A stretch of 44,609 nt of DNA from a virus (IMGVR_UViG_3300045988_011059:1-44609), one strand, 5' to 3'. Shown: positions 13,989-44,609, counted from the first letter of the stretch. Translations and numbers: made by a program. Notes: generated by a model from the sequence alone, not told the origin.

Positions 13989-14163
13989 ACTCACTTTTGA
14001 ATGGCATTTCATAGAAGTTAGTTAACTGGCCTCGATCACTTCGTTCTGTCATTTCTTTTGAGGCCTCCTCCTTGCTACCAACGGCGTAAATATCGACCCA
14101 CTCGTCCCATTCTTCGTCGAATACGCGGATTACATATATTGTTTTCATAATGTTTTCACGCAT
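13987..14163 (-). CDS. Hypothetical acidic small protein
   Basis: ORF track frame; start at ATG 14163 or 14148; last gene of the minus-strand cassette. Confidence 0.4.
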   Translation of the reverse strand: MRENIMKTIYVIRVFDEEWDEWVDIYAVGSKEEASKEMTERSDRGQLTNFYEMPFKSE

Positions 14164-14725
14164 TTGGGTAAATCCCCAGGATTCTATTAGCAATCGCAGC
14201 CGCTGTTAATGTAATCTCGCCCGGAACGACGGCGACGTCATGGTGCACTACCCCATCAATATCGTACAGATAACCACGGCTGTCATCCTCAAACGTATAG
14301 CCGTCACGATGAAGGCGAACGATTCTCACGTCATGACCCGCGGCGACGATAGGAGTCACTTCACTGGCGAATCCGCCATCAGACACTACAAAAACTTCGT
14401 TGCCGTCTGGCAAGTTTTCAGCAAGATACTTACCGAAATAATCATTGCCAAGTACAGGCTTAATGAATTGCTCCGAGATAGCAATCATGAACTGACGTCG
14501 CGACAACCCATTAAGGAAACATTCTGGCTTTTCTTTCCGTGCCCGGTCGTCGTAGCCGTCGAGAAACTCATGGTAAGCATCCGGACCTAACGCCGCCAAA
14601 GCAATATTGAACATTGGATTCTTGAAACTGGTAGTTCCTTTCGCAAAGCCCATTTCTACCAGTGCCATAGCAAGCGTGTCTTTCCCGCAACCCGCAGGAC
14701 CATTAAGAATAATTACCTTAGCCAT
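14156..14725 (-). CDS. P-loop nucleotide / polynucleotide kinase-like protein
   Basis: Walker A GPAGCGKDT near the N-terminus, like the G-x-GKDT P-loop of T4 dNMP kinase. Confidence 0.65.
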   Translation of the reverse strand: MAKVIILNGPAGCGKDTLAMALVEMGFAKGTTSFKNPMFNIALAALGPDAYHEFLDGYDDRARKEKPECFLNGLSRRQFMIAISEQFIKPVLGNDYFGKYLAENLPDGNEVFVVSDGGFASEVTPIVAAGHDVRIVRLHRDGYTFEDDSRGYLYDIDGVVHHDVAVVPGEITLTAAAIANRILGIYPNA

Positions 14726-15210
14726 TATTTATCGCTCCCATGTGGCTTTAAGTGTGAAGAGTTCCCGTTACAGTCATATTCGGTAACCGCGTGAGTGGTT
14801 ATGCCGAGTTCGCGGAAATGCTTTATTACCGCGGGAGAGTCGTCGAATGCGCACAAGATTCTTTCCAGCCCGATAGCACGTAGCACCTCTTCCTTAATTA
14901 CGATGTCTTTTCTGTTGTCGTGTTTGCTGCGCATGATTAACTGGTAAAATTCGACGCGGTGGCGCTGCAACCACATTCTTGTTTCTTTTTCCGCGTCATC
15001 ACTGCGGCCCGTTAAAATAACAACGGCGTAGCAGCGATTAAGGGCGTTACACAGTTCGATGTTATCTATAATTGGTTCATCATCTTTGCACGCCATGTTA
15101 AATGGTTTCCACGCCCAGGTTTCGCCGTAGTTATCTTTCGGCAGCAGGTGTAAACGATGAGTACCATCCGCCAATGTCCCGTCTAAATCGAAAATCACAA
15201 TATCTTTCAT
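14725..15210 (-). CDS. HAD-superfamily phosphatase, T4 Pnk phosphatase-domain-like
   Basis: N-terminal IVIFDLDGTLA (DxDGT), then LTGRS and RKD...KEE...DD motifs in the same order as the T4 polynucleotide kinase 3'-phosphatase domain. Confidence 0.7.
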   Translation of the reverse strand: MKDIVIFDLDGTLADGTHRLHLLPKDNYGETWAWKPFNMACKDDEPIIDNIELCNALNRCYAVVILTGRSDDAEKETRMWLQRHRVEFYQLIMRSKHDNRKDIVIKEEVLRAIGLERILCAFDDSPAVIKHFRELGITTHAVTEYDCNGNSSHLKPHGSDK

Positions 15211-16337
15211 CCCAGCATCTCCGGTGAAATAGTTAAACGTGCGACCTCGCCAAATTCGGCGCTATAAGTAATTACATTTGCGCTACGGCCCGACATCCAA
15301 CCTCCGCGGGAGGCGTAGGCGTCTTTAGCCGCTAAGGTGCGGTGTTGCTCAACAATCATGTTACGGCTTTCCACAATCTTCTGATGGTGCAGGTGTCCTA
15401 CATGGGCGTAGCTGTAAACACTCTCACCGAACGCTTTGCGGAACTTGGCGATCATAACCGGTTCGATAGCGTCGAAGCGTGCTTTATGTCCGTGGTGAAA
15501 GAACAGCGTCGTTTTGCCGTGTTGCACCATCTTGTAAACATCCGGTGACGTATCGACGAACACACGCGGCTCATTGTCATACAGCGTACTGAACATCTCA
15601 GCCAACCAAATCATGCCACTTTCGTCGTGATTCCCTTGCACGATAAGCAAGCGAACATTTTTATGCTTAACCAGCGCCATATCGACAACACGGCGGACCA
15701 TGCGAATCATGTAGCGGACAAGTTTCTGGTAACGGGTGTCGGCGTCAAGGGCGTGACCGCTTGCAGGTGTAACGGCAACCAGACTATCGAAGTGCGCGAA
15801 GTCGCCCAGCAGGTTAATAACCCCAGTCCCCGCATCCGGTGCTTTCTGAAACGCCGCGTCGAACCAGCGAGAGAACAGGTCTTCCGCAATCTTCATATCC
15901 CAGTCGTCGCCGCTCTCGTCGGCCCAGGCCAGCATACCGAGATGAAAATCGGATACAGTGTAAAGATTAAGCAGTTTATCGTCGCGTTTGGCTCGGGTTG
16001 CTTTAACAGGTGCAACCGGAGTAATCTCTGACTTCATGCCTTCGATTACGGCTTTCATCAACTCGACCTGACGTTCTGCGTCTGTGTCGGTCTTAACCCA
16101 TTGCAACTTAGTGTTGCCGAACTCGTCCACAAGTGACGACGTTCCTTTAATCTTGTAGCCATCTGGCACAAGGTGACTAACGTCGCGCCCGTGGCCTACG
16201 CCTTTCTTAGCCAGCTTCGCTTTACGGATGCGAATAACGCGGTCTGAGATGCCGTATTTACGGGCGATGTCGATATTCTTCATACCGGCGTTCAATTCTT
16301 CCTGCAACTGTTCGTCGGTTATTTTCTTCCTGGCCAT
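15207..16337 (-). CDS. Calcineurin-like metallophosphoesterase with N-terminal HTH
   Basis: Motifs D-x-H (SDFHLG), GD (LLGDFAH), GNHD (QGNHDE), GHxH (HHGH / GHLHH); N-terminal NIDIARKYGISDRVIRIRKA resembles an HTH. Confidence 0.7.
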   Translation of the reverse strand: MARKKITDEQLQEELNAGMKNIDIARKYGISDRVIRIRKAKLAKKGVGHGRDVSHLVPDGYKIKGTSSLVDEFGNTKLQWVKTDTDAERQVELMKAVIEGMKSEITPVAPVKATRAKRDDKLLNLYTVSDFHLGMLAWADESGDDWDMKIAEDLFSRWFDAAFQKAPDAGTGVINLLGDFAHFDSLVAVTPASGHALDADTRYQKLVRYMIRMVRRVVDMALVKHKNVRLLIVQGNHDESGMIWLAEMFSTLYDNEPRVFVDTSPDVYKMVQHGKTTLFFHHGHKARFDAIEPVMIAKFRKAFGESVYSYAHVGHLHHQKIVESRNMIVEQHRTLAAKDAYASRGGWMSGRSANVITYSAEFGEVARLTISPEMLG

Positions 16338-16401
16338 GCTTATTCCTCGTGCTTAGGATTTGTCCTATTTAACCACAGTGCATTCCTTTAAATAAAGGCG
16401 A

Positions 16402-16728
16402 CTATTTACTTTCTGCGCCTATTGCCCACCCAGTCATTACCATTTGCAGGCGGGTGGCGGTCAGTAGGCTGTAAACCGCGTCTCCGTTTTTCTCTACAGA
16501 ACGTATTACCGTGTATGTTACGGCTTGCGGAGGCAGGCCCGATTTACCAACCTCTACGGCTGCCTCACACTCGCGAACGGTAGAGTCCTTAAATGCCTTT
16601 ACAATAGTAGGGTCGGCTCTATCAAGCACACCAGAAGTCATAAGAACGGATTCACTAAACACCTGTTCACACGGAGACCCAAAAGTAGCAAAAGACATAA
16701 AACCAAGAGCTAACACTAATTTACGCAT
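16402..16728 (-). CDS. Secreted / periplasmic protein with signal peptide
   Basis: N-terminal MRKLVLALGFMSFATFG is a classic signal peptide; no lipobox. Confidence 0.6.
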   Translation of the reverse strand: MRKLVLALGFMSFATFGSPCEQVFSESVLMTSGVLDRADPTIVKAFKDSTVRECEAAVEVGKSGLPPQAVTYTVIRSVEKNGDAVYSLLTATRLQMVMTGWAIGAESK

Positions 16729-26901: not shown

Positions 26902-28322
26902 TTCTTACTCCTTCTCTTCATATAATTAAGTAGTTCGTCCTGTACGGACCTTTTCTCGTCTGTACGCGCGGCGACAACTTCATCAAGAGTATCTCTGGCT
27001 ATTATTTGATAAATGAATACAGACCGTTTGTATCCAGATTGCATCTGCCTTACCGGGCCTATACGCTCGATAACCTGCAAATAATGTTCAAGGTTCCACC
27101 CCTGACTCATAAAGGCCATGTGGTGCCCGCCGTGTTGTAGCGACAGTCCGTGGCCTGCGGAGGCTGGGTGTATCAGGAGCATTGGTATTTCCCCGCGGTT
27201 CCACGCGTCCATCTGCTTATTACCCTTAGCGCCTTTAGAAAATGCCTGGGCCTGAGGGAATCGCTTAAGGATGCGCTCCAGTTCGTGCTTGAACTGATAC
27301 GCCACCAGTAACGGCGCACCCTGTAGCTCCTCAACAATTGACTCGAGTGCATCCAGTTTCGTGTCGTGCACTTTCTCCCAGTCTTTCGTTGCTTCACCAT
27401 CCGGCCCTGATACATACACGGCACCGGATGCGATCTGCAAGCACTTTGAGGTCTTCGCCGCGGCGTTAGCCGCTTCAACTTCTCCGCTCTCCAGTTCCGC
27501 GAATAACTTCTCCTCCATATCTATGTATGCCTGACGCGCTTTCTTCGGCAGGTCGATTTCAACCGGTACAATAATCGGCGCCTCGCAACCGAACCACTCG
27601 GCGGCGTCAATCGTGAGACTGATGTCCTTCATCTTCTGGTGAATTTCATTATCCGCACCAGGGCGGGCGTGGTATTCGCGCGCCATCGCCGACTTACCTT
27701 TCTGTACCGAGTTAAACCAGCGGTCCGTGAACGCTGTGTACGAAGAACCGAGGCGCTCACCCGCGTCGATAAACCAGTTCTGCCCCCACAAGTCTTTTAG
27801 TCCGTTTGGCGACGGCGTACCCGTCAGGTTGATGAAACGCTTAACCTTACCGAACGCAACCTTACTGAGCGCCTTCGCCCTCTTACTACCGCCTGAACGG
27901 CTGCGGAATGATTTCAGCTTCGTGCTTTCATCGGCGACAATAACCGTAAAAGGCCAGTCGTCTTTGCCGTAGTAGTCAATCAGCCACTCGATAACTTCGT
28001 AGTTGGTGCACACCACGTTAGCGTCAGACTCCAGCGCCGCGATGCGGCGCTTCTCTGAACCTGTTGCGTCTACAACATTCAGACACGGGAACCGCCATTT
28101 CTCTTGTTCTGCGGGCCACGTACCGGACGCAACTCGTAGCGGGGCAAGGATTAACACACGGTCGTCATCATTAAGTTGGCCGTTGCGGAACAGTCGGTTT
28201 AAAGCCCACAGTACGCTGCCAGTCTTCCCGGCACCCATGCTTGCCCATATGTTGCAGCGATGGTGCCGCAGCATGAACGAAGTCATGAGCTTCTGGTACT
28301 CTCGCCTTTGAAACTTAGACAT
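26898..28322 (-). CDS. SNF2-family helicase
   Basis: Walker A MGAGKTGS and DEAH-like DESTK motif; start at ATG 28322, not the track start. Confidence 0.8.
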   Translation of the reverse strand: MSKFQRREYQKLMTSFMLRHHRCNIWASMGAGKTGSVLWALNRLFRNGQLNDDDRVLILAPLRVASGTWPAEQEKWRFPCLNVVDATGSEKRRIAALESDANVVCTNYEVIEWLIDYYGKDDWPFTVIVADESTKLKSFRSRSGGSKRAKALSKVAFGKVKRFINLTGTPSPNGLKDLWGQNWFIDAGERLGSSYTAFTDRWFNSVQKGKSAMAREYHARPGADNEIHQKMKDISLTIDAAEWFGCEAPIIVPVEIDLPKKARQAYIDMEEKLFAELESGEVEAANAAAKTSKCLQIASGAVYVSGPDGEATKDWEKVHDTKLDALESIVEELQGAPLLVAYQFKHELERILKRFPQAQAFSKGAKGNKQMDAWNRGEIPMLLIHPASAGHGLSLQHGGHHMAFMSQGWNLEHYLQVIERIGPVRQMQSGYKRSVFIYQIIARDTLDEVVAARTDEKRSVQDELLNYMKRRSKK

Positions 28323-28998
28323 GATTAGCCTCGTAAACTGCTTTTGCGAAACCTCGCGGGGTGAGGCTGCGGATTGTTTTTGTTCTGGCGCTCTTGCCGC
28401 CCAGTTTAGCCCAGCCCGGATTATCTCCACTACCCGCGGCAACATCGGCAACGTCGGGCATAACAAACCCATTGCCCGCCCACAGGCACGTCTTTTTAAC
28501 ATAGGCATCTCGCGCTGGAATAACATCCGGAAACATTGGATGTGTGTCGTCTTCCGGTAGATAGCCGCCGTAATCGTGTGGGTCGAATACATAATCGGGC
28601 TTACGCCATAAAGATGAAAGAACGCTAACTGGGTTCTCAATCATATAAGGTACGTTGTACTTTTTAGCCAGACGCGCTGCCACTTTGCATGTAATCACGG
28701 CCTCTACCTGAAACGTTGGGTTCTTCTTGCGCTTAGCCTCGAAATGACGCGACCCACTAACGGCTAAATCTGTGCAAGGAGGGAACGCAAAAATAATATC
28801 CGGCGCGGCTTCGAAGTCGAATTTATTATCAATCCACGCGTTTATATAGTGGATGTTCTCGTGTTCAACCTTTGCACCCAATAGTGCGTAGTCGCCGTGG
28901 TCAGCGCCGTCGTAGTTGAAACAGTAGCAAGTATGGCCCGCTTCCGCCCACGGCTGGGCCATAAGGCCCGAACCGTCAAATAATGACCAGACAATCAT
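28315..28998 (-). CDS. DNA (cytosine-5)-methyltransferase-like protein, compact
   Basis: Motif I LFDGSG, motif IV PPCTD, motif VI ENP in canonical order; only 227 aa. Confidence 0.65.
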   Translation of the reverse strand: MIVWSLFDGSGLMAQPWAEAGHTCYCFNYDGADHGDYALLGAKVEHENIHYINAWIDNKFDFEAAPDIIFAFPPCTDLAVSGSRHFEAKRKKNPTFQVEAVITCKVAARLAKKYNVPYMIENPVSVLSSLWRKPDYVFDPHDYGGYLPEDDTHPMFPDVIPARDAYVKKTCLWAGNGFVMPDVADVAAGSGDNPGWAKLGGKSARTKTIRSLTPRGFAKAVYEANHV

Positions 28999-38392: not shown

Positions 38393-38626
38393 TTATTCCA
38401 GGTCTTCTAAAGTAGCGGTCATTCCGCGAACTTCAGCAACAGCACTATATTTCCCACCAACATTTTTCACGACACCAGATTTAACCAGCACCTTCAACGA
38501 CCCTTCAATAATGGCGGAACTATAGTACCTAAAATAACTACGACGCAAGTCCATAACGCTGCACGACCCTTTTTTACGTGTTAGCGAAACGACAGCCGTA
38601 AATACCCGGGACTGGAACTCGGTCAT
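38393..38626 (-). CDS. Hypothetical protein (77 aa)
   Basis: ORF track; ATGA-coupled to the upstream HTH gene. Confidence 0.5.
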   Translation of the reverse strand: MTEFQSRVFTAVVSLTRKKGSCSVMDLRRSYFRYYSSAIIEGSLKVLVKSGVVKNVGGKYSAVAEVRGMTATLEDLE

Positions 38627-38793
38627 TTTACATTCTCCTTAATCCACGCTTCCACTTTCTCCGGGTCAAACGTACCTGGCTGCCGGCGGCCCATAATGCG
38701 GGTACAACAATCAGGGAACTTCCCACTCTTTAACCAGTTATTAAGCGTACGACGAGTAACCCCAATACGCTCAGCTACCTCATTCTGCGTCAT
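38623..38793 (-). CDS. Small HTH DNA-binding protein (AlpA/excisionase-like)
   Basis: MTQNEVAERIGVTRRTLNNWLKSGKFP HTH; ATG 38793 lies downstream of the predicted promoter, the track TTG start does not. Confidence 0.6.
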   Translation of the reverse strand: MTQNEVAERIGVTRRTLNNWLKSGKFPDCCTRIMGRRQPGTFDPEKVEAWIKENVK

Positions 38794-38825
38794 TCTCAAA
38801 CCCTCATTATCAGTTAACGAAACCA

Positions 38826-38854
38826 AGTATACATTGCGAATAATGGGAAATCAA
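38826..38854 (-). promoter_or_regulatory. Sigma70-like promoter TTGATT-N17-TATACT (minus strand)
   Basis: Read on the reverse complement; sits just upstream of the first leftward gene. Confidence 0.5.
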
Positions 38855-39150
38855 ACATAATCGCACCTATTGACATTATGAAAATCTTCGTTTAAGGTGC
38901 TTCTATATCTTAGTTACTTTGATTCCTGTTCACCTTGTAATACCCGCTTGAAACGCAGCGGCGCACCAGCGCCAGCGAAGTGTTAAGCGGCAGATTACTG
39001 AACATAAGAATTATCGTAACTTTCCTTCCTTAGTATCTCCGGTTGCCCTGGGCAAGCTCTATTCTCATCGGCAGCATATCTCTTAAGTATATGATAATTA
39101 AAAGTTTCTATAGTTGCCGTAAGCAAGGTAGAGAGTACTTCACTCCGCTG

Positions 39151-39170
39151 GGGTGGGCTAACGCCCACCC
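39151..39170. other. Perfect GC-rich hairpin GGGTGGGC-TAAC-GCCCACCC
   Basis: 8-bp inverted repeat read directly, inside the 465-bp divergent control region. Confidence 0.6.
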
Positions 39171-39229
39171 ACTGCGTTGCGTACTCTTTTAAGAAACGAA
39201 CGAATCACAACGGCAACGTAACTATTCTC

Positions 39230-39258
39230 TTGCACACCCCAACATAATAGGATACTAT
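39230..39258 (+). promoter_or_regulatory. Early-type promoter TTGCAC-N17-TACTAT
   Basis: TTGCAC 39230-39235, TACTAT 39253-39258; flanked by ACTATTC motifs. Confidence 0.55.
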
Positions 39259-39292
39259 TCACTTATCGAAACGAGACATAAGGAATTTAGAA

Positions 39293-39511
39293 ATGAACAA
39301 AGCGACCGCAAGCGTAGTTTCCGCAATAAAAGAAGTTTACGGCATCGATATCTCAGAGCGAGTAATCATCGGGAACAAACGAAACTTCTTTACGTTCGAC
39401 ACCGACGGAATGGATGAAAATGATTTTATTAACGTACAACGTTTCGCCAACGGTAAAGGGCTTCGTAACGAGCCTGCGGGTTACAAGAAATTCGCTATCT
39501 ACTTTAAATAA
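39293..39511 (+). CDS. Hypothetical protein (72 aa)
   Basis: ORF track; AAGGA RBS; AT-rich. Confidence 0.6.
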   Translation: MNKATASVVSAIKEVYGIDISERVIIGNKRNFFTFDTDGMDENDFINVQRFANGKGLRNEPAGYKKFAIYFK

Positions 39512-39529
39512 GACAGAGGGGTGAGGGTT

Positions 39530-39709
39530 ATGTTTAAGCACGGTCAGTTGGTTAAAACGAAAGACTGCGGGTACGGCGTCATTGTGCGAGGTTCTAAAAT
39601 ACCAGGGAGATATTTTTTGACTAATCCGTACTGGGATTTTGATATGTGGTTTTACGAGTACGAGCTAACACTCATCGGCAACAATTTTAAATTCAAAGGG
39701 GCAAAGTGA
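39530..39709 (+). CDS. Hypothetical protein (59 aa)
   Basis: ORF track frame from ATG 39530 after a GAGGGGTGAGGG RBS. Confidence 0.5.
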   Translation: MFKHGQLVKTKDCGYGVIVRGSKIPGRYFLTNPYWDFDMWFYEYELTLIGNNFKFKGAK

Positions 39710-39942
39710 TGCAAATCATAATTACAGATAACACCGTTACCTATGAAACAGCTAACGATACTCTGGAAAGCATAGGCGTAAATATTGGCGATGTTTTTGA
39801 TGTGCTGGACTCCTGCGAGTACGGCTGGTGGATTAAGGTCAGGCATTACAAAGTGCCAGTAACTAAGGCCGAAGCGGAAATATACACAACGGCATCGAAT
39901 CATGATGCTCGTGCCGACGACTCCGAGGGAGGTTGCCGTTAA
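39709..39942 (+). CDS. Hypothetical protein (77 aa)
   Basis: ORF track frame; ATG 39709 overlaps the upstream stop. Confidence 0.5.
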   Translation: MQIIITDNTVTYETANDTLESIGVNIGDVFDVLDSCEYGWWIKVRHYKVPVTKAEAEIYTTASNHDARADDSEGGCR

Positions 39943-40199
39943 TGAATAATACTGAACTGAAAACAGTAGCGGAATATAACCGTAAAATACGGGTCATGCG
40001 TCGGGGTGCGGGGCTGGAGCAGTTCTATAACATGTGGCGCATTGCGACGCGCGACCCTGAGTTTCTTCAGACAGGTTATTATTCCATTAAAGGCATTATC
40101 CCGATTCGTGCACGTAAGGATTATGGTTGGGTTCGTGAGACCCCTAATCTTTTGTGGTGCTGGTATTGTGGTGAATTCTGGGTAAAGGTTAAGGACTAA
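39942..40199 (+). CDS. Hypothetical protein (85 aa)
   Basis: ORF track frame from ATG 39942 (TAATG overlap). Confidence 0.5.
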   Translation: MNNTELKTVAEYNRKIRVMRRGAGLEQFYNMWRIATRDPEFLQTGYYSIKGIIPIRARKDYGWVRETPNLLWCWYCGEFWVKVKD

Positions 40200-40202
40200 G
40201 TT

Positions 40203-40346
40203 ATGAGAGAAGCATTTGAACGGTGGGCCGTCGTCGAGGGTCTGCCGGTTAACAAGGGTTCTAAGAAAGAGTACCTTAACGTTAAGACACGTCTCGCGTG
40301 GCGGGCGTGGAAAGCTGGTGTGCAATATGCGATGAATACGAGGTGA
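40203..40346 (+). CDS. Hypothetical small protein (47 aa)
   Basis: Hand-translated; AAGGA RBS. Confidence 0.35.
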   Translation: MREAFERWAVVEGLPVNKGSKKEYLNVKTRLAWRAWKAGVQYAMNTR

Positions 40347-40349
40347 GAT

Positions 40350-40655
40350 ATGAGCGAAGAACTTAAAGCATTTTATAAAGCCTACGCTGCGTGGCTCGAT
40401 GCTGGTGCGGTTAACAATGGCGTATTCACATGTTGCACCGGACTATGTTTCGCATTGCATAAGTGGGCAGGTGATAAAGGTTACAACCTCCGCGCTCTGC
40501 GCCTGGAGTTGAAAGCACAGTTTACCAACGCTGGGTTAGATTCGGGCTACCCGTTTAACCACGGCGAACCTAACTATGACGTCGAGTGCGATGATGGAAC
40601 AATCCACCTAAATCCGGCACGCATCGCCTGGGTACGTAAACACGCGACTGATTGA
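40350..40655 (+). CDS. Hypothetical protein (101 aa)
   Basis: ORF track; GAGGTGA RBS. Confidence 0.55.
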   Translation: MSEELKAFYKAYAAWLDAGAVNNGVFTCCTGLCFALHKWAGDKGYNLRALRLELKAQFTNAGLDSGYPFNHGEPNYDVECDDGTIHLNPARIAWVRKHATD

Positions 40656-40725
40656 TACGTATAACACACTGGATGCCGTTACCCGAGCCGCTGGAAGTGT
40701 GATGTTCAATAGTTTGGGATTTTAC

Positions 40726-40763
40726 TGAGTGACTTACGCTGCTACACAGCAGCGTATCATTTT
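40726..40763 (+). terminator. Rho-independent terminator
   Basis: ACGCTGCT-ACAC-AGCAGCGT hairpin followed by a T-rich run. Confidence 0.6.
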
Positions 40764-40826
40764 TCTCATTTTTGTTCTATTTCACCAAACGCAACAATCG
40801 AAGAGACTATTGCAGGAGATGCAACA

Positions 40827-41000
40827 ATGATTACTAAAGAACAGGCCGAACGACTAATCACGTTAATTGACACGATGATTGATGTAAAAACCGATTTAGC
40901 AACGGCAACAGAGGAGTCCGCTACCTGGTCACTTGAGGAAAGAGAAGCAGAAGCGGAGCGCGCGTTACTGGCGTTCATCGACTCTATAACACACCAATAA
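40827..41000 (+). CDS. Hypothetical small protein (57 aa)
   Basis: Hand-translated; strong AGGAG RBS 8 nt upstream; preferred over the antisense track ORF 40766..40978. Confidence 0.45.
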   Translation: MITKEQAERLITLIDTMIDVKTDLATATEESATWSLEEREAEAERALLAFIDSITHQ

Positions 41001-41007
41001 AATTTAC

Positions 41008-41036
41008 TTGCACGCTGAAATAGAATAGGCTACTAT
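41008..41036 (+). promoter_or_regulatory. Early-type promoter TTGCAC-N17-TACTAT
   Basis: TTGCAC 41008-41013, TACTAT 41031-41036; same architecture as 39230-39258. Confidence 0.55.
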
Positions 41037-41067
41037 TCATTTACACAGACGAGAGGAGAGACAGAAG

Positions 41068-41286
41068 ATGTTCCTGGAATGCAAATCCCACGATGACTAT
41101 TGGGTGCTGACTAAAAACGACTTATACCATCTCAAAGAAGACGGCGACGAGAGCCGCTGCTACGTAATAGACGACAACGGCACTGAACTTGATGTCTACT
41201 ACGCGGGGTATGGTCGATGGGCGCTATCCGCAGACGATGACTTTGTGTTCGAAGAATATAATGGGGAGGAACCAGAAGATGAGTAA
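41068..41286 (+). CDS. Hypothetical acidic protein (72 aa)
   Basis: ORF track; GAGAGGAGAG RBS. Confidence 0.55.
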   Translation: MFLECKSHDDYWVLTKNDLYHLKEDGDESRCYVIDDNGTELDVYYAGYGRWALSADDDFVFEEYNGEEPEDE

Positions 41287-41971
41287 CAAAAACGAAGTAT
41301 TCGAGTACCTGATTGACCAACTACGGCAGCAGCTACCGGTCGCAGATGTAATGGGTGAAATTAAACGGTGGAGTATCGACCGTAGTATTGCTGGTCGCGG
41401 TAACTATACCGACGAGGAAAATGCCGTAATCGATGCCTACATCGGCCTGGAGCACAACCAGTACAAGCAACAGTGCGAAGACCTGGCGCATGAGGTGCAG
41501 TCACTTAAGAATCAGTTACGTGATGCGTCGGCGCAGATTAAGGAGTTGCGGGAAGACAACATTAAGAAATCTGAGCACATATCGCACCTGACAGGGCAAT
41601 CGTCAGCATATCGCGGCGATGCGTTGCGCTTTCAAGCGCAAGTTGATGACCTGGTAAAACGACTGGCTACCGGTGACGTGGAGGCGTACAAACTTATCCG
41701 TAAAGGTGCGCTTGGCACTGAGAAATCCGGTTGCCGTAAAGAAGATACCCAGGAATGTGACCACAATTGGCTTATCGCTCCAGGATTGTTTATCGCCGAA
41801 GGCCACAAGGGCAACGTGCCCGGTAGTCTGTTTTGCTGCGAATGCGGTGCGCGTGAGTGGGATGACCCGGAGTATGAGCCGAAAGCCTATACGCAGAAAT
41901 GCAAACATGAGTGGGAATATTATTACCCCAACGGGCGGCGTTGTACCAAATGCGGGGTGATAAACTTATGA
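41279..41971 (+). CDS. Coiled-coil protein with C-terminal Cys/His zinc-ribbon-like cluster
   Basis: ORF track frame from ATG 41279; central coiled coil; C-terminal CDHNW...CCECG...CKHEW...CTKCG. Confidence 0.55.
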   Translation: MSNKNEVFEYLIDQLRQQLPVADVMGEIKRWSIDRSIAGRGNYTDEENAVIDAYIGLEHNQYKQQCEDLAHEVQSLKNQLRDASAQIKELREDNIKKSEHISHLTGQSSAYRGDALRFQAQVDDLVKRLATGDVEAYKLIRKGALGTEKSGCRKEDTQECDHNWLIAPGLFIAEGHKGNVPGSLFCCECGAREWDDPEYEPKAYTQKCKHEWEYYYPNGRRCTKCGVINL

Positions 41972-42244
41972 CCAGCATCCTCTTTATCTGGGTACTGTCC
42001 GCAGGCCAGATGCACCTCGCGGCATCAGAAACGTTTTACTCTATGGAGGCGTGGTGATGATTAAACTATTCGACTGGCGTACACTGCCGCCGGAGGCCTG
42101 ATATAGCGGCGAGTATGTGCGCGTGCGGTACTCTGATTTAATGGCTCTCGAAGCCGAGTTACAGAAATACAAAGACCAGTTCCCGGATTACGTCGAGTGC
42201 GCGAACTGTGGGTCGGTTACACATGTGGAAGGGGTGGAGTGATT

Positions 42245-42463
42245 ATGATATTCAGAGACCGTAGCAGCCTAAGAACGCCGGATTGTCCTACGTTCGAGTT
42301 CGAAGACAAAGACGGGGATGTCTGCTGTATTCAATTTTATAAAGACGATGAAGGCGAGTGTGGGCTTGTAGAGTTGCAGGTTTACAGCGAAACCGGTTGT
42401 GTTGTATTAAGTGCAGACGATGCTGAATCACTAGCTCGTAAGATACTTGAGGGTGTTAAATGA
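42245..42463 (+). CDS. Hypothetical protein (72 aa)
   Basis: ORF track frame from ATG 42245 with GGAGTG RBS. Confidence 0.5.
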   Translation: MIFRDRSSLRTPDCPTFEFEDKDGDVCCIQFYKDDEGECGLVELQVYSETGCVVLSADDAESLARKILEGVK

Positions 42464-42753
42464 GCCTTGCAACTGACATCCTGAAACGAAGAGGCCTTGA
42501 GCCGCTGTCACCGAGAGCTAAGACGCGCATACACAAGCGCCGCCATAACGCGCTGTACCCGGAGATTCAGGCCAGACGCAAAGCTGTCCGCGCCTGTGGG
42601 TTCCAGAACGGGAAGGCCGTAAATCTCGGTGAGTTCAAAACACAGGAACGTGCAGCTATCGCTAACCGGTTATTTAATTACTGGAAATCTCTGGGATACG
42701 ATGATATTCCGACGAAACCGCAGAGACGACAATACATCTGGAGACACAAATGA
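42460..42753 (+). CDS. Hypothetical basic protein (97 aa)
   Basis: ORF track; ATGA coupling on both sides. Confidence 0.55.
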   Translation: MSLATDILKRRGLEPLSPRAKTRIHKRRHNALYPEIQARRKAVRACGFQNGKAVNLGEFKTQERAAIANRLFNYWKSLGYDDIPTKPQRRQYIWRHK

Positions 42754-43190
42754 CTACTATCGCGTTTGACGGAAAGACAATGGCTTGCGACACGCGTGTT
42801 GTGTGCGGAAGTAACTGCTACAACACTGGCACTAAGATATACGAGAATGATTTTGCTGTTATCGGGGTGGCGGGTGATGCGGGGGTAGGCGCTATGCTTA
42901 TCGATTGCCCCGGTATCCTTCGGGCAAAGCACTATGACTTCGATTTCGAAGCCCTGGTGTTCGTGAAAGACACAGAAAAGGTGTATAAAGTCGCGTTTTA
43001 TAAATCATGGGATTGTGCCCTTAGTTCGGTTATCCCTGTCGCCGATAGCTTTGCCGCCGTTGGGTCCGGCTCGCCCTATGCGTTAGCGGCTATGTATTTG
43101 GGCGAAACCGCAACACGCGCGATTACTGTAGCCTCTCAATTCGACATTAACACCGGCGGCAAGATTATTACCAAACAACTATTAGGATAA
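42750..43190 (+). CDS. HslV / proteasome beta-type Ntn-hydrolase-like protein
   Basis: N-terminal MTTIAFDG matches the Thr1 nucleophile context of HslV (MTTIVS); IYENDFAVIGVAGDAG parallels LYNDKVIAGFAGGTADAF; AAVGSGSPYALAAMYL parallels IAIGSGGPYAQAAARAL; compared from memory. Confidence 0.65.
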   Translation: MTTIAFDGKTMACDTRVVCGSNCYNTGTKIYENDFAVIGVAGDAGVGAMLIDCPGILRAKHYDFDFEALVFVKDTEKVYKVAFYKSWDCALSSVIPVADSFAAVGSGSPYALAAMYLGETATRAITVASQFDINTGGKIITKQLLG

Positions 43191-43204
43191 TTCCTAACCG
43201 TGCT

Positions 43205-43244
43205 ATCCTCCAGTTACTGCATACTTAATACGCACCTGGAGGAT
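43205..43244 (+). promoter_or_regulatory. Hairpin sequestering the holin ribosome-binding site
   Basis: ATCCTCCAG (43205-43213) is the exact complement of CTGGAGGAT (43236-43244), which contains the GGAGGA RBS of the holin. Confidence 0.4.
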
Positions 43245-43249
43245 TCATC

Positions 43250-43558
43250 TTGGATAAATTTACTGAAACTGTGACAGGCTGGCTTCTGGCTGCCGCACTC
43301 GCTGGTGGGGTAATCGGACTACGGCAGCATAAGTCCGTTATTTCTGGCCCCATCGACGGCTTCTGCTTTATTGCAACTGGCTTCACTTGCGCCGTATTTG
43401 GCGCACCCCTCGCGGCACAATGGTTCGGCATTACTGGCGACCGTGAAATCGCCGGTCTGGGCTTCATTATCGCTATTCTCTGGATGCCTATCTATTCCCG
43501 CCTCTCTGGTATCGTTGCCGGAGAATACATCGCACGTCGAGGGGGTACAGATGAATGA
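43250..43558 (+). CDS. Holin
   Basis: 102 aa with three predicted transmembrane segments; TTG start with GGAGGA RBS; immediately upstream of the endolysin. Confidence 0.65.
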   Translation: MDKFTETVTGWLLAAALAGGVIGLRQHKSVISGPIDGFCFIATGFTCAVFGAPLAAQWFGITGDREIAGLGFIIAILWMPIYSRLSGIVAGEYIARRGGTDE

Positions 43559-44499: not shown

Positions 44500-44529
44500 C
44501 CCGGCCCTGACCCAGCCGGGATTTTTTTT
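44500..44529 (+). terminator. Rho-independent terminator abutting the terminal repeat
   Basis: CCCGGC-CCTGACCCA-GCCGGG hairpin followed by ATTTTTTTTA, which is the start of the 89-bp repeat. Confidence 0.7.
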
Positions 44530-44609
44530 ATCTATTTTCTGTAATGACTAGTTGACTATTACCTACGACCATATTATATCTACTCCATCGACAACGAGAA
44601 CGGAGTAGA
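44521..44609. repeat. Second copy of the 89-bp terminal repeat
   Basis: Identical to 1..89. Confidence 0.95.

Follow-up and report, generated by a model that had tools for sequence, protein, structure and literature searches.

The sequence IMGVR_UViG_3300045988_011059:1-44609, called the window here at its full length of 44,609 nucleotides, comes from a virus, and its positions 39293-42753 hold a rightward block of small genes, g1 to g14, which is the subject of this work. By megablast the window is a Kagunavirus (Guernseyvirinae), a siphophage of Escherichia coli, with about 89% identity and patchy coverage to the phages UTEC10, BCH953P1, Bas73 and K1ind. The best phage relatives spanned only 62% of the region 39000-43200. 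An identical 89-bp repeat was found at both ends (positions 1-89 and 44521-44609), which marks the assembly as a complete genome, about 44.5 kb long. On the left of the block there are three leftward genes, encoding a helicase-primase, a 77-aa protein and a small helix-turn-helix (HTH) protein (38623-38826), and then a control region of 466 bp. On the right there are the genes for an HslV-family peptidase, two holins and an endolysin. Annotated relatives have the same layout, and all genes of the block are labelled "hypothetical" in them.

Genes and control signals of the block

A preliminary description, made from the sequence of the window, had proposed a chain of about 13 small, translationally coupled genes of 47-100 aa at this position. 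The chain exists: its open reading frames (ORFs) lie on the same strand, and a Shine-Dalgarno sequence precedes every one except g12. The size range was wrong, as g9 (41279-41971) encodes 230 aa and g10 is a remnant of 29 aa. Coupling was found for a part of the chain. Seven of the 12 junctions overlap by 1-8 nt (TGATG, TAATG, ATGA three times, ATGAGTAA and TGATG) and three further ones are gaps of at most 3 nt, but g1 and g2 are separated by 18 nt, g6 and g7 by a terminator, and g7 and g8 by a promoter.

The AT-rich character of the first 650 bp was confirmed. At 0.438, the GC content of 39293-39942 lies about 2 standard deviations below the genome value of 0.510 and among the lowest 3.4% of 650-bp windows; the AT-rich zone already begins near 38650, inside the control region. 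Several proteins had been called acidic or Cys-rich. The products of g3, g7, g8 and g13 do have isoelectric points (pI) of 4.1-4.4 and several products carry 4-9 Cys, but being Cys-rich is no family signature. Metal binding through Cys was considered for g6 and g13 and rejected, with one conserved Cys each in wider alignments.

The ratio of non-synonymous to synonymous substitution (dN/dS) against relatives is 0.02-0.3 for g1, g4, g5, g6, g7 and g8, a sign of purifying selection which shows that these are real coding genes; g11 is probably not a gene. Pfam, PHROGs, NCBIfam and PADLOC assigned no function to any ORF of the block, as the description had it. Their matches were limited to families without a known function, to DUF7438 in the case of g7 and to coiled-coil noise in that of g9. 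A second chain of ten small rightward genes lies at 94-2163, upstream of the terminase genes. It matched only PHROG families of unknown function, and its ORF at 658-912 matched no family whatever.

The second promoter motif, which had been reported inside the block, was confirmed: TTGCAC-N17-TACTAT(TCA) occurs exactly at 39230 (P1) and at 41008 (P2). The motif TTGCAC-N17-TACTATTCA has three exact copies in the 44.6 kb, at 39230 (+), 41008 (+) and 16785 (-), and none in 100 shuffled sequences. As predicted promoters, P1 and P2 are intergenic and conserved, with 17-bp spacing and four of six consensus matches in TACTAT. Both are nearly invariant in at least 28 Kagunavirus loci, and this extends to much of the spacer (ATAGAATAGG-TACTAT), whose conservation hints at a bound regulator besides sigma-70. 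The third copy stands before a leftward operon among the tail genes (14156-16728, minus strand), which encodes a 108-aa protein of unknown function, an SbcD-like exonuclease, a polynucleotide kinase and a deoxynucleoside monophosphate (dNMP) kinase. Because the third copy heads this DNA-metabolism operon, the promoter class would serve non-structural genes, which fits early or middle expression.

The internal terminator was also confirmed, at 40735-40756 plus a T-run. It folds with -17.7 kcal/mol (z = -4.7), and its stem recurs in 38 related loci, some of them Jerseyvirus-like with different loops. A terminator scan found no intrinsic terminator between P2 and about 44500. The second transcription unit therefore probably extends over the HslV-like, holin and endolysin genes, which makes the plain label "early" doubtful for the right half of the block. 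The strong terminator at about 44500-44530 (CCCGGC…GCCGGG, then T8) lies just 5' of the end repeat, which itself indicates terminal redundancy or the overlap of a circular assembly.

Upstream of P1 there is a GC-rich hairpin, and relatives have a hairpin of other sequence at the same spot; near the third promoter copy only a weak hairpin was seen. The control region also holds a conserved rightward promoter-like site, TTGACA-N17-TAAGGT, at 38870-38898, followed by about 270 nt without an intact ORF. The 106-aa leftward coding sequence annotated there in Bas73 is broken in the window. One possibility for the stretch 38870-39170, with the strong hairpin at its end, is a small RNA, another an insulating terminator; an Rfam scan of the whole window gave no match.

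Cassette slots and conserved genes among relatives

The block was compared with 62 IMG/VR loci anchored on g14 and two GenBank relatives, 64 loci in all, and the presence of genes was scored by tblastn (Table 1).

Table 1. Position, strand and description of the genes and other features, with the number of the 64 loci in which each gene is present.
Feature	Position	Strand	Description	Loci (of 64)
Third promoter copy	16785-16754	-	heads leftward operon	
GC-rich hairpin	39151-39170	+	GGGTGGGC-TAAC-GCCCACCC; about 60 nt upstream of P1; folded segment z = -3.2	
P1	39230-39261	+	predicted promoter; heads transcription unit 1	
g1 cassette	39279-39515	+	clean 237-bp insertion between P1 leader (…AACGAGACA) and g2 ribosome-binding site	
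g1	39293-39511	+	72 aa; Ip9 homologue without capsid-targeting sequence	7
g2	39530-39709	+	59 aa, basic; divergent alleles in most Kagunaviruses	29 (39-63% identity)
g3	39709-39942	+	77 aa, acidic, chimeric	33 (mostly tail alone)
g4	39942-40199	+	85 aa, basic; no PHROG or Pfam family	10 (Kagunavirus only)
g5	40203-40346	+	47 aa, basic; phrog_15836; in every Kagunavirus locus spanning the block	37
g6	40350-40655	+	101 aa; followed by terminator	1
Intrinsic terminator of unit 1	40735-40773	+	9-bp stem, ACAC loop, tail TCATTTTTCTCATTTTTG	
Cassette slot	40807-41007	+	left junction TTGCAGGAGATGCAACAATG, right junction ACACCAATAAAATTTAC, then P2; g7 here	
g7	40827-41000	+	57 aa, acidic; Pfam DUF7438; followed by P2	9
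P2	41008-41039	+	predicted promoter; heads transcription unit 2	
g8	41068-41286	+	72 aa, pI 4.1; hypervariable first slot after P2	1
g9	41279-41971	+	230 aa; phrog_6094; coiled coil and zinc-ribbon-like modules	47
g10 remnant	41968-42057	+	29 aa; N-terminal hydrophobic part of a 66-67 aa protein; phrog_3766	60
93-nt replacement	42054-42146	+	supplants 3' part of g10 and 5' part of g12	
g11	42057-42101	+	14 aa; no homologue in relatives	
g12 remnant	42117-42242	+	41 aa from GTG, weak ribosome-binding site; positions 22-60 of phrog_29624	26
g13	42245-42463	+	72 aa, acidic; very rare cassette	0
g14	42460-42753	+	97 aa, pI 11.2; phrog_9632; core Guernseyvirinae gene	64
HslV-family peptidase gene	42750-43190	+	just beyond the block	21

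The greater part of the block is accessory, as had been proposed, and mosaic, as seen in the low counts of g1, g4, g6, g7, g8 and g13. The same status does not hold for g5, g9, g10 and g14, which are conserved in the whole genus, and g10 and g14 in the whole subfamily. Both promoters were present in 29 genomes. In these, P1 lies 996-1880 bp from P2 and P2 lies 327-1747 bp from g14, and the block holds 5-15 ORFs per genome, drawn from about 33 ORF families.

The slot behind the terminator illustrates the apparent exchange of single genes. It is empty in locus L003 and filled by g7 in the window and L004; Bas73 has a different gene there, and L016 has two, between which the junction motif recurs. 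The spacing from terminator to P2 is 112 nt in many relatives and 270 nt here with g7 between. A GACA repeat bounds the g1 cassette, which Bas73 and L016 lack. At the first slot after P2 the alleles are mutually unrelated, and several, among them g8 and the allele of Bas73, share an acidic EEPEDE tail because the tail overlaps the ribosome-binding site and start codon of g9. The same was seen with g3, whose last 17 codons are kept in relatives because they carry the ribosome-binding site of the next gene. From this comparison of loci we infer that recombination takes place at such junctions.

The peptidase gene, present in part of the loci, is skipped in L004, where the holin gene follows g14 directly. 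It is thus an optional cassette itself. The N-terminus of the peptidase is MTTIAF…, with Thr after Met as in HslV. The region 43191-43252, before the first holin gene, is conserved with or without the HslV-like gene and holds the palindrome TAGGATAATTCCTA. An inverted repeat in it, ATCCTCCAG…CTGGAGGAT, would pair with the Shine-Dalgarno sequence of the holin gene, which suggests a possible translational control of lysis timing.

The zone g10-g12 is damaged in the window. In relatives g10 encodes 66-67 aa with a hydrophobic leader, and g12 encodes 60-98 aa ending …AELQKYKDQFPDYVECANCGSVTHVEGVE. Here only the last 41 codons of g12, from the GTG at 42117, match the family (end …ECANCGSVTHVEGVE), and the g12-type frame, from ATG 42057 to the stop at 42242, is interrupted by an in-frame TGA at 42099-42101. 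It is the 93-nt replacement that truncates g10 and puts this TGA in the frame; the stretch had no match in the phage collection. The damage may be real decay or a sequence error. Taken as decay, it means that g10 and g12 are dispensable. A Lar-like restriction alleviation function for g12 was rejected (Lar_restr_allev, E = 0.045, 14.4 bits against a cut-off of 28.6).

Homologues of the block proteins

The product of g1 matches phrog_7673, "internal head protein". This label is valid as homology to the T-even protein Ip9 and is not evidence of a head protein. With g1 as query, tblastn returned 171 phage records. T-even-type myoviruses make up about 160 of these, with 49-58% identity, and some of their genes bear the annotation ip9, ip7 or ipI. 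In the profile search g1 matched RB15 Ip9 (P0040) with E = 1.9e-30 and 49% identity, and among 5.8 billion proteins only the T-even and Kagunavirus groups were found. The ip9 of VR5 and the homologue of PTE-Eco05 are 50-58% identical to g1 over all 72 residues, and both sit between 57B and trna.4, which is the T4 ipI position. The likeness thus joins the whole 72-aa g1 protein and mature Ip9 at 49-58% identity. Like the T-even Ip proteins (Ip9 of RB15 and VR5), g1 is small, non-essential-looking and horizontally mobile.

There are two differences. The T-even copies begin with MKTYQEFIAE, the T4 capsid-targeting sequence, and a linker of about 10 residues, whereas both are absent from g1: all 72-aa Kagunavirus copies begin with MNKATA… at the start of the mature domain. 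Packaging by the T4 route would thereby be impossible, and the missing sequence argues against packaging of g1 in the head and against its injection. Also, g1 is not in the ipI or the ipII-ipIII locus; it stands as the first gene after P1 in a siphovirus. The AlphaFold model of g1 is a confident alpha/beta sandwich, alpha-beta-beta-alpha-beta-beta, with a predicted local distance difference test (pLDDT) score of 95.7. Its best match among viral structures is unnamed, and the g1 sequence had no match in PDB.

The T4 proteins Ip1, Ip2 and Ip3 are inhibitors of type IV restriction, each of one GmrSD enzyme (PMC12373910), and Ip proteins are described as diverse injected defence proteins with only the capsid-targeting sequence in common (PMC3012670). 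From this analogy and from the promoter-proximal position, it is possible, at somewhat less than even chance, that g1 neutralises a nuclease-type defence of the host. Certain points weigh against it. Hydroxymethylcytosine (hmC), which GmrSD targets, is not known to occur in Kagunavirus DNA. The g1 model gave only generic alpha/beta matches in PDB (best E = 0.013), and g1 did not align with T4 IPI, the target of which is known. The activities reported in PMC12373910 cover Ip1-3, and that of Ip9 is not among them. We speculate, quite tentatively, that g1 is a free-standing, untagged member of the T-even Ip repertoire, and that one counter-defence domain may reach the host by two routes: T-even phages would inject it, and Kagunaviruses would transcribe its gene on entry. 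The target of Ip9 would then be a defence other than the hmC-specific GmrSD, because glucosyl-hmC is not known in Kagunavirus DNA. If it is true, the untagged 72-aa g1 protein would be a handy tool to find the Ip9 target. The genome also encodes a DNA methyltransferase (phrog_757; 28315-28998, minus strand). Methylated phage DNA could be a target of modification-dependent nucleases, and this bears on what an Ip-like protein might counter.

Two other accessory genes were also shared with unrelated phages. The g6 product is 47-56% identical to the products of free-standing genes in Phapecoctavirus (phAPEC8-like, several copies per genome), Rogunavirinae and other phages. For g13, only three homologous clusters were found among the 5.8 billion proteins: a Kagunavirus metagenome contig (L071), a 50-kb phage contig and a lambdoid prophage. 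The prophage (L067, 4421-5240) has the order N, an 80-aa gene (orf80), the g13-like gene and then a terminator. In this immediate-early position the g13-like gene would be transcribed before antitermination. An exhaustive profile search added a few relatives of 65-82 aa, and its matches in giant repeat proteins were discarded as spurious. The structure model of g13 (pLDDT 58.7) was too poor for a fold search.

The g9 product joins a constant N-terminus to a coiled coil, to inserts that are optional and to zinc-ribbon-like CxH…CxxCG modules, of which there are one or two, with two here. In 29 loci (L001-L054) there are 28 versions of 109 to 230 aa, and in L003 g9 is fused with the C-terminus of g12. 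The CxxCG modules seem to be used as sites of recombination, both inside a gene and from one gene to another. Matches of g9 to SMC, LmuB and a scaffolding protein were rejected as compositional, due to the coiled coil.

The g14 proteins share the N-terminus MSLATDILKR, and the family alignment shows the AP2-like pattern …GV…W.A……K…LG.F.T…A..A, in common with AP2/ERF domains (PF00847). Searched against PDB, the family profile found AP2 domains only, with two matches, the AP2/ERF proteins WRI1 (E = 0.013) and TEM1 (E = 0.93), and five of 19 family members matched Pfam AP2 weakly (best E = 0.0011). So g14 is probably an AP2-type DNA-binding regulator and not an accessory gene. What speaks against this assignment is that the g14 of the window itself had no match to Pfam AP2 and that the family scores are below the curated thresholds. 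There are further differences from AP2/ERF proteins: the first strand motif has been lost from the Kagunavirus copies, the protein carries neither HNH nor any other enzymatic domain, and MSLATDILKR has no counterpart.

A probable cassette-swapping region and its parallels

We consider it likely that the block is a hyperplastic, cassette-swapping accessory region of a virulent Kagunavirus, organised in two transcription units of the host RNA polymerase; this reading concerns architecture and evolution. Unit 1 would run from P1 (39230) through g1-g6 to the terminator at 40735-40756, and unit 2 from P2 (41008) through g8-g14 and probably further, across the HslV-like gene and the lysis cassette. 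The conserved promoters, terminator, leaders and last codons would most likely be short homology patches for the exchange of single-gene cassettes among Kagunaviruses. Over longer times, genes would be gained from unrelated coliphages, including T-even, T1-like and phAPEC8-like phages and lambdoid prophages. In this arrangement g5, the modular g9, g10 and g14 would be anchors, and g1, g4, g6, g7, g8 and g13 the swappable genes between them. T-even phages inject Ip proteins along with their DNA; g1 would instead be made as the first product of the first rightward promoter.

Some points weigh against two simple units of early transcription. The -35 element TTGCAC agrees with the consensus at only three of six positions, both promoters are sub-threshold, and a generic promoter scan returned neither P1 nor P2. 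Conservation of the spacer could point to control by a phage factor in place of plain constitutive early promoters. The only transcriptome of a relative has four early genes, of which the leftward HTH gene is one and the others are unnamed; it is coarse and does not name the genes of the block (PMC12645636). A literature search for Jerseyvirus transcriptomes gave nothing useful. The suggestion of an early accessory array stands in part: the predicted promoters are sigma-70-like and of a type shared with the DNA-metabolism operon, but unit 2 probably includes lysis genes.

The preliminary description had looked to the block for host-takeover and anti-defence proteins. In the strongest form of this idea, the whole block would be a dedicated early operon whose small proteins act on host targets in the first minutes. 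Its genes are small, often acidic, promoter-proximal and of fast turnover, they share their promoter type with DNA metabolism, g1 is homologous to an injected T-even protein, and a g13 relative occupies the immediate-early pL position of a lambdoid prophage. We nevertheless judge it rather unlikely, since the block has four conserved anchors, one of which resembles a DNA-binding regulator, unit 2 runs probably without an intervening terminator into the lysis genes, and g10 and g12 are decayed and so dispensable. No ORF matched a known anti-defence, defence or host-takeover family in Pfam (including Ocr, ArdA and Lar), PHROGs, NCBIfam or PADLOC. Kagunaviruses are also highly sensitive to restriction-modification, and variably to the Old system, in BASEL phenotyping (PMC11990801), which weighs against the favoured reading as well and argues against a broad anti-restriction activity in the genus. 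The anti-defence idea is plausible for a few cassettes only, and it gains one specific lead, the homology of g1 to Ip9.

The genes could on the other hand be unrecognised housekeeping functions, such as small regulators, accessory factors of replication or recombination, or factors of lysis timing, and their variability would then be allelic replacement. Divergent or modular alleles of g2 and g9 at fixed positions agree with this, as do the probable regulator g14, the signal- or membrane-like leader of g10 near the lysis cassette, and the fixed positions relative to the landmarks. It is quite improbable, given that several slots can be empty (L003), that gene number per genome varies from 5 to 15, that g1, g6 and g13 are missing from most relatives and common to unrelated phages, and that g10 and g12 are broken in an apparently complete phage genome. 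It is hardly conceivable that the region is mostly non-coding or regulatory DNA, with many small ORFs that do not represent genes. The truncated g10 (29 aa) and g12 (41 aa) and the 14-aa g11 are doubtful as functional genes, but the other 11 ORFs have Shine-Dalgarno sequences, dN/dS is low, protein-level homologues occur in unrelated phages, the g1 model is confident, relatives have the same genes annotated, and Rfam found nothing.

The hyperplastic cassette region that we favour resembles the hyperplastic regions of T4-like phages with promoter-early stem-loop (PeSL) motifs, where small variable genes of unknown function likewise lie between conserved blocks, and where short conserved composites of terminator and early promoter flank the cassettes and are thought to be exchange points (PMC2839356, PMC4122927). 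The counterparts here are the hairpin with P1 and the terminator with P2, which are conserved while the flanking genes vary. The differences are the phage family, a small siphovirus, and the motif, which is apparently another one and has only three copies per genome. Moreover, much of the exchange in Kagunaviruses takes place apparently at gene-junction motifs (ribosome-binding site, start and stop) and not just at promoter and stem-loop, as the comparison suggests. The "moron" genes of the lambdoid pL and nin regions are a second parallel: they are also small optional genes after early promoters, swapped at short conserved junctions, and a homologue of g13 actually occupies such a pL position. 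In contrast with lambdoid phages, the phage studied here is virulent, without repressor, integrase or antitermination system, and has long translationally coupled chains.

In summary, the location and the reality of the block are as first described, and the region is otherwise ordinary. What is added is the architecture of two units, the slots defined by junction motifs, the division into anchors and cargo, the broken g10 and g12, the probable AP2-type g14 and the untagged Ip9 homologue.

Kagunaviruses are under development as small engineerable phages. The map of landmarks and junctions shows where genes can go in or out without touching regulation, and it indicates dispensable genes, with g10 and g12 broken here and several slots empty in relatives. 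Variable early regions of this kind are the main reservoir of unexplored genes of phage-host interaction, and the link between g1 and Ip9 offers a testable counter-defence candidate that is common to very different phage families.

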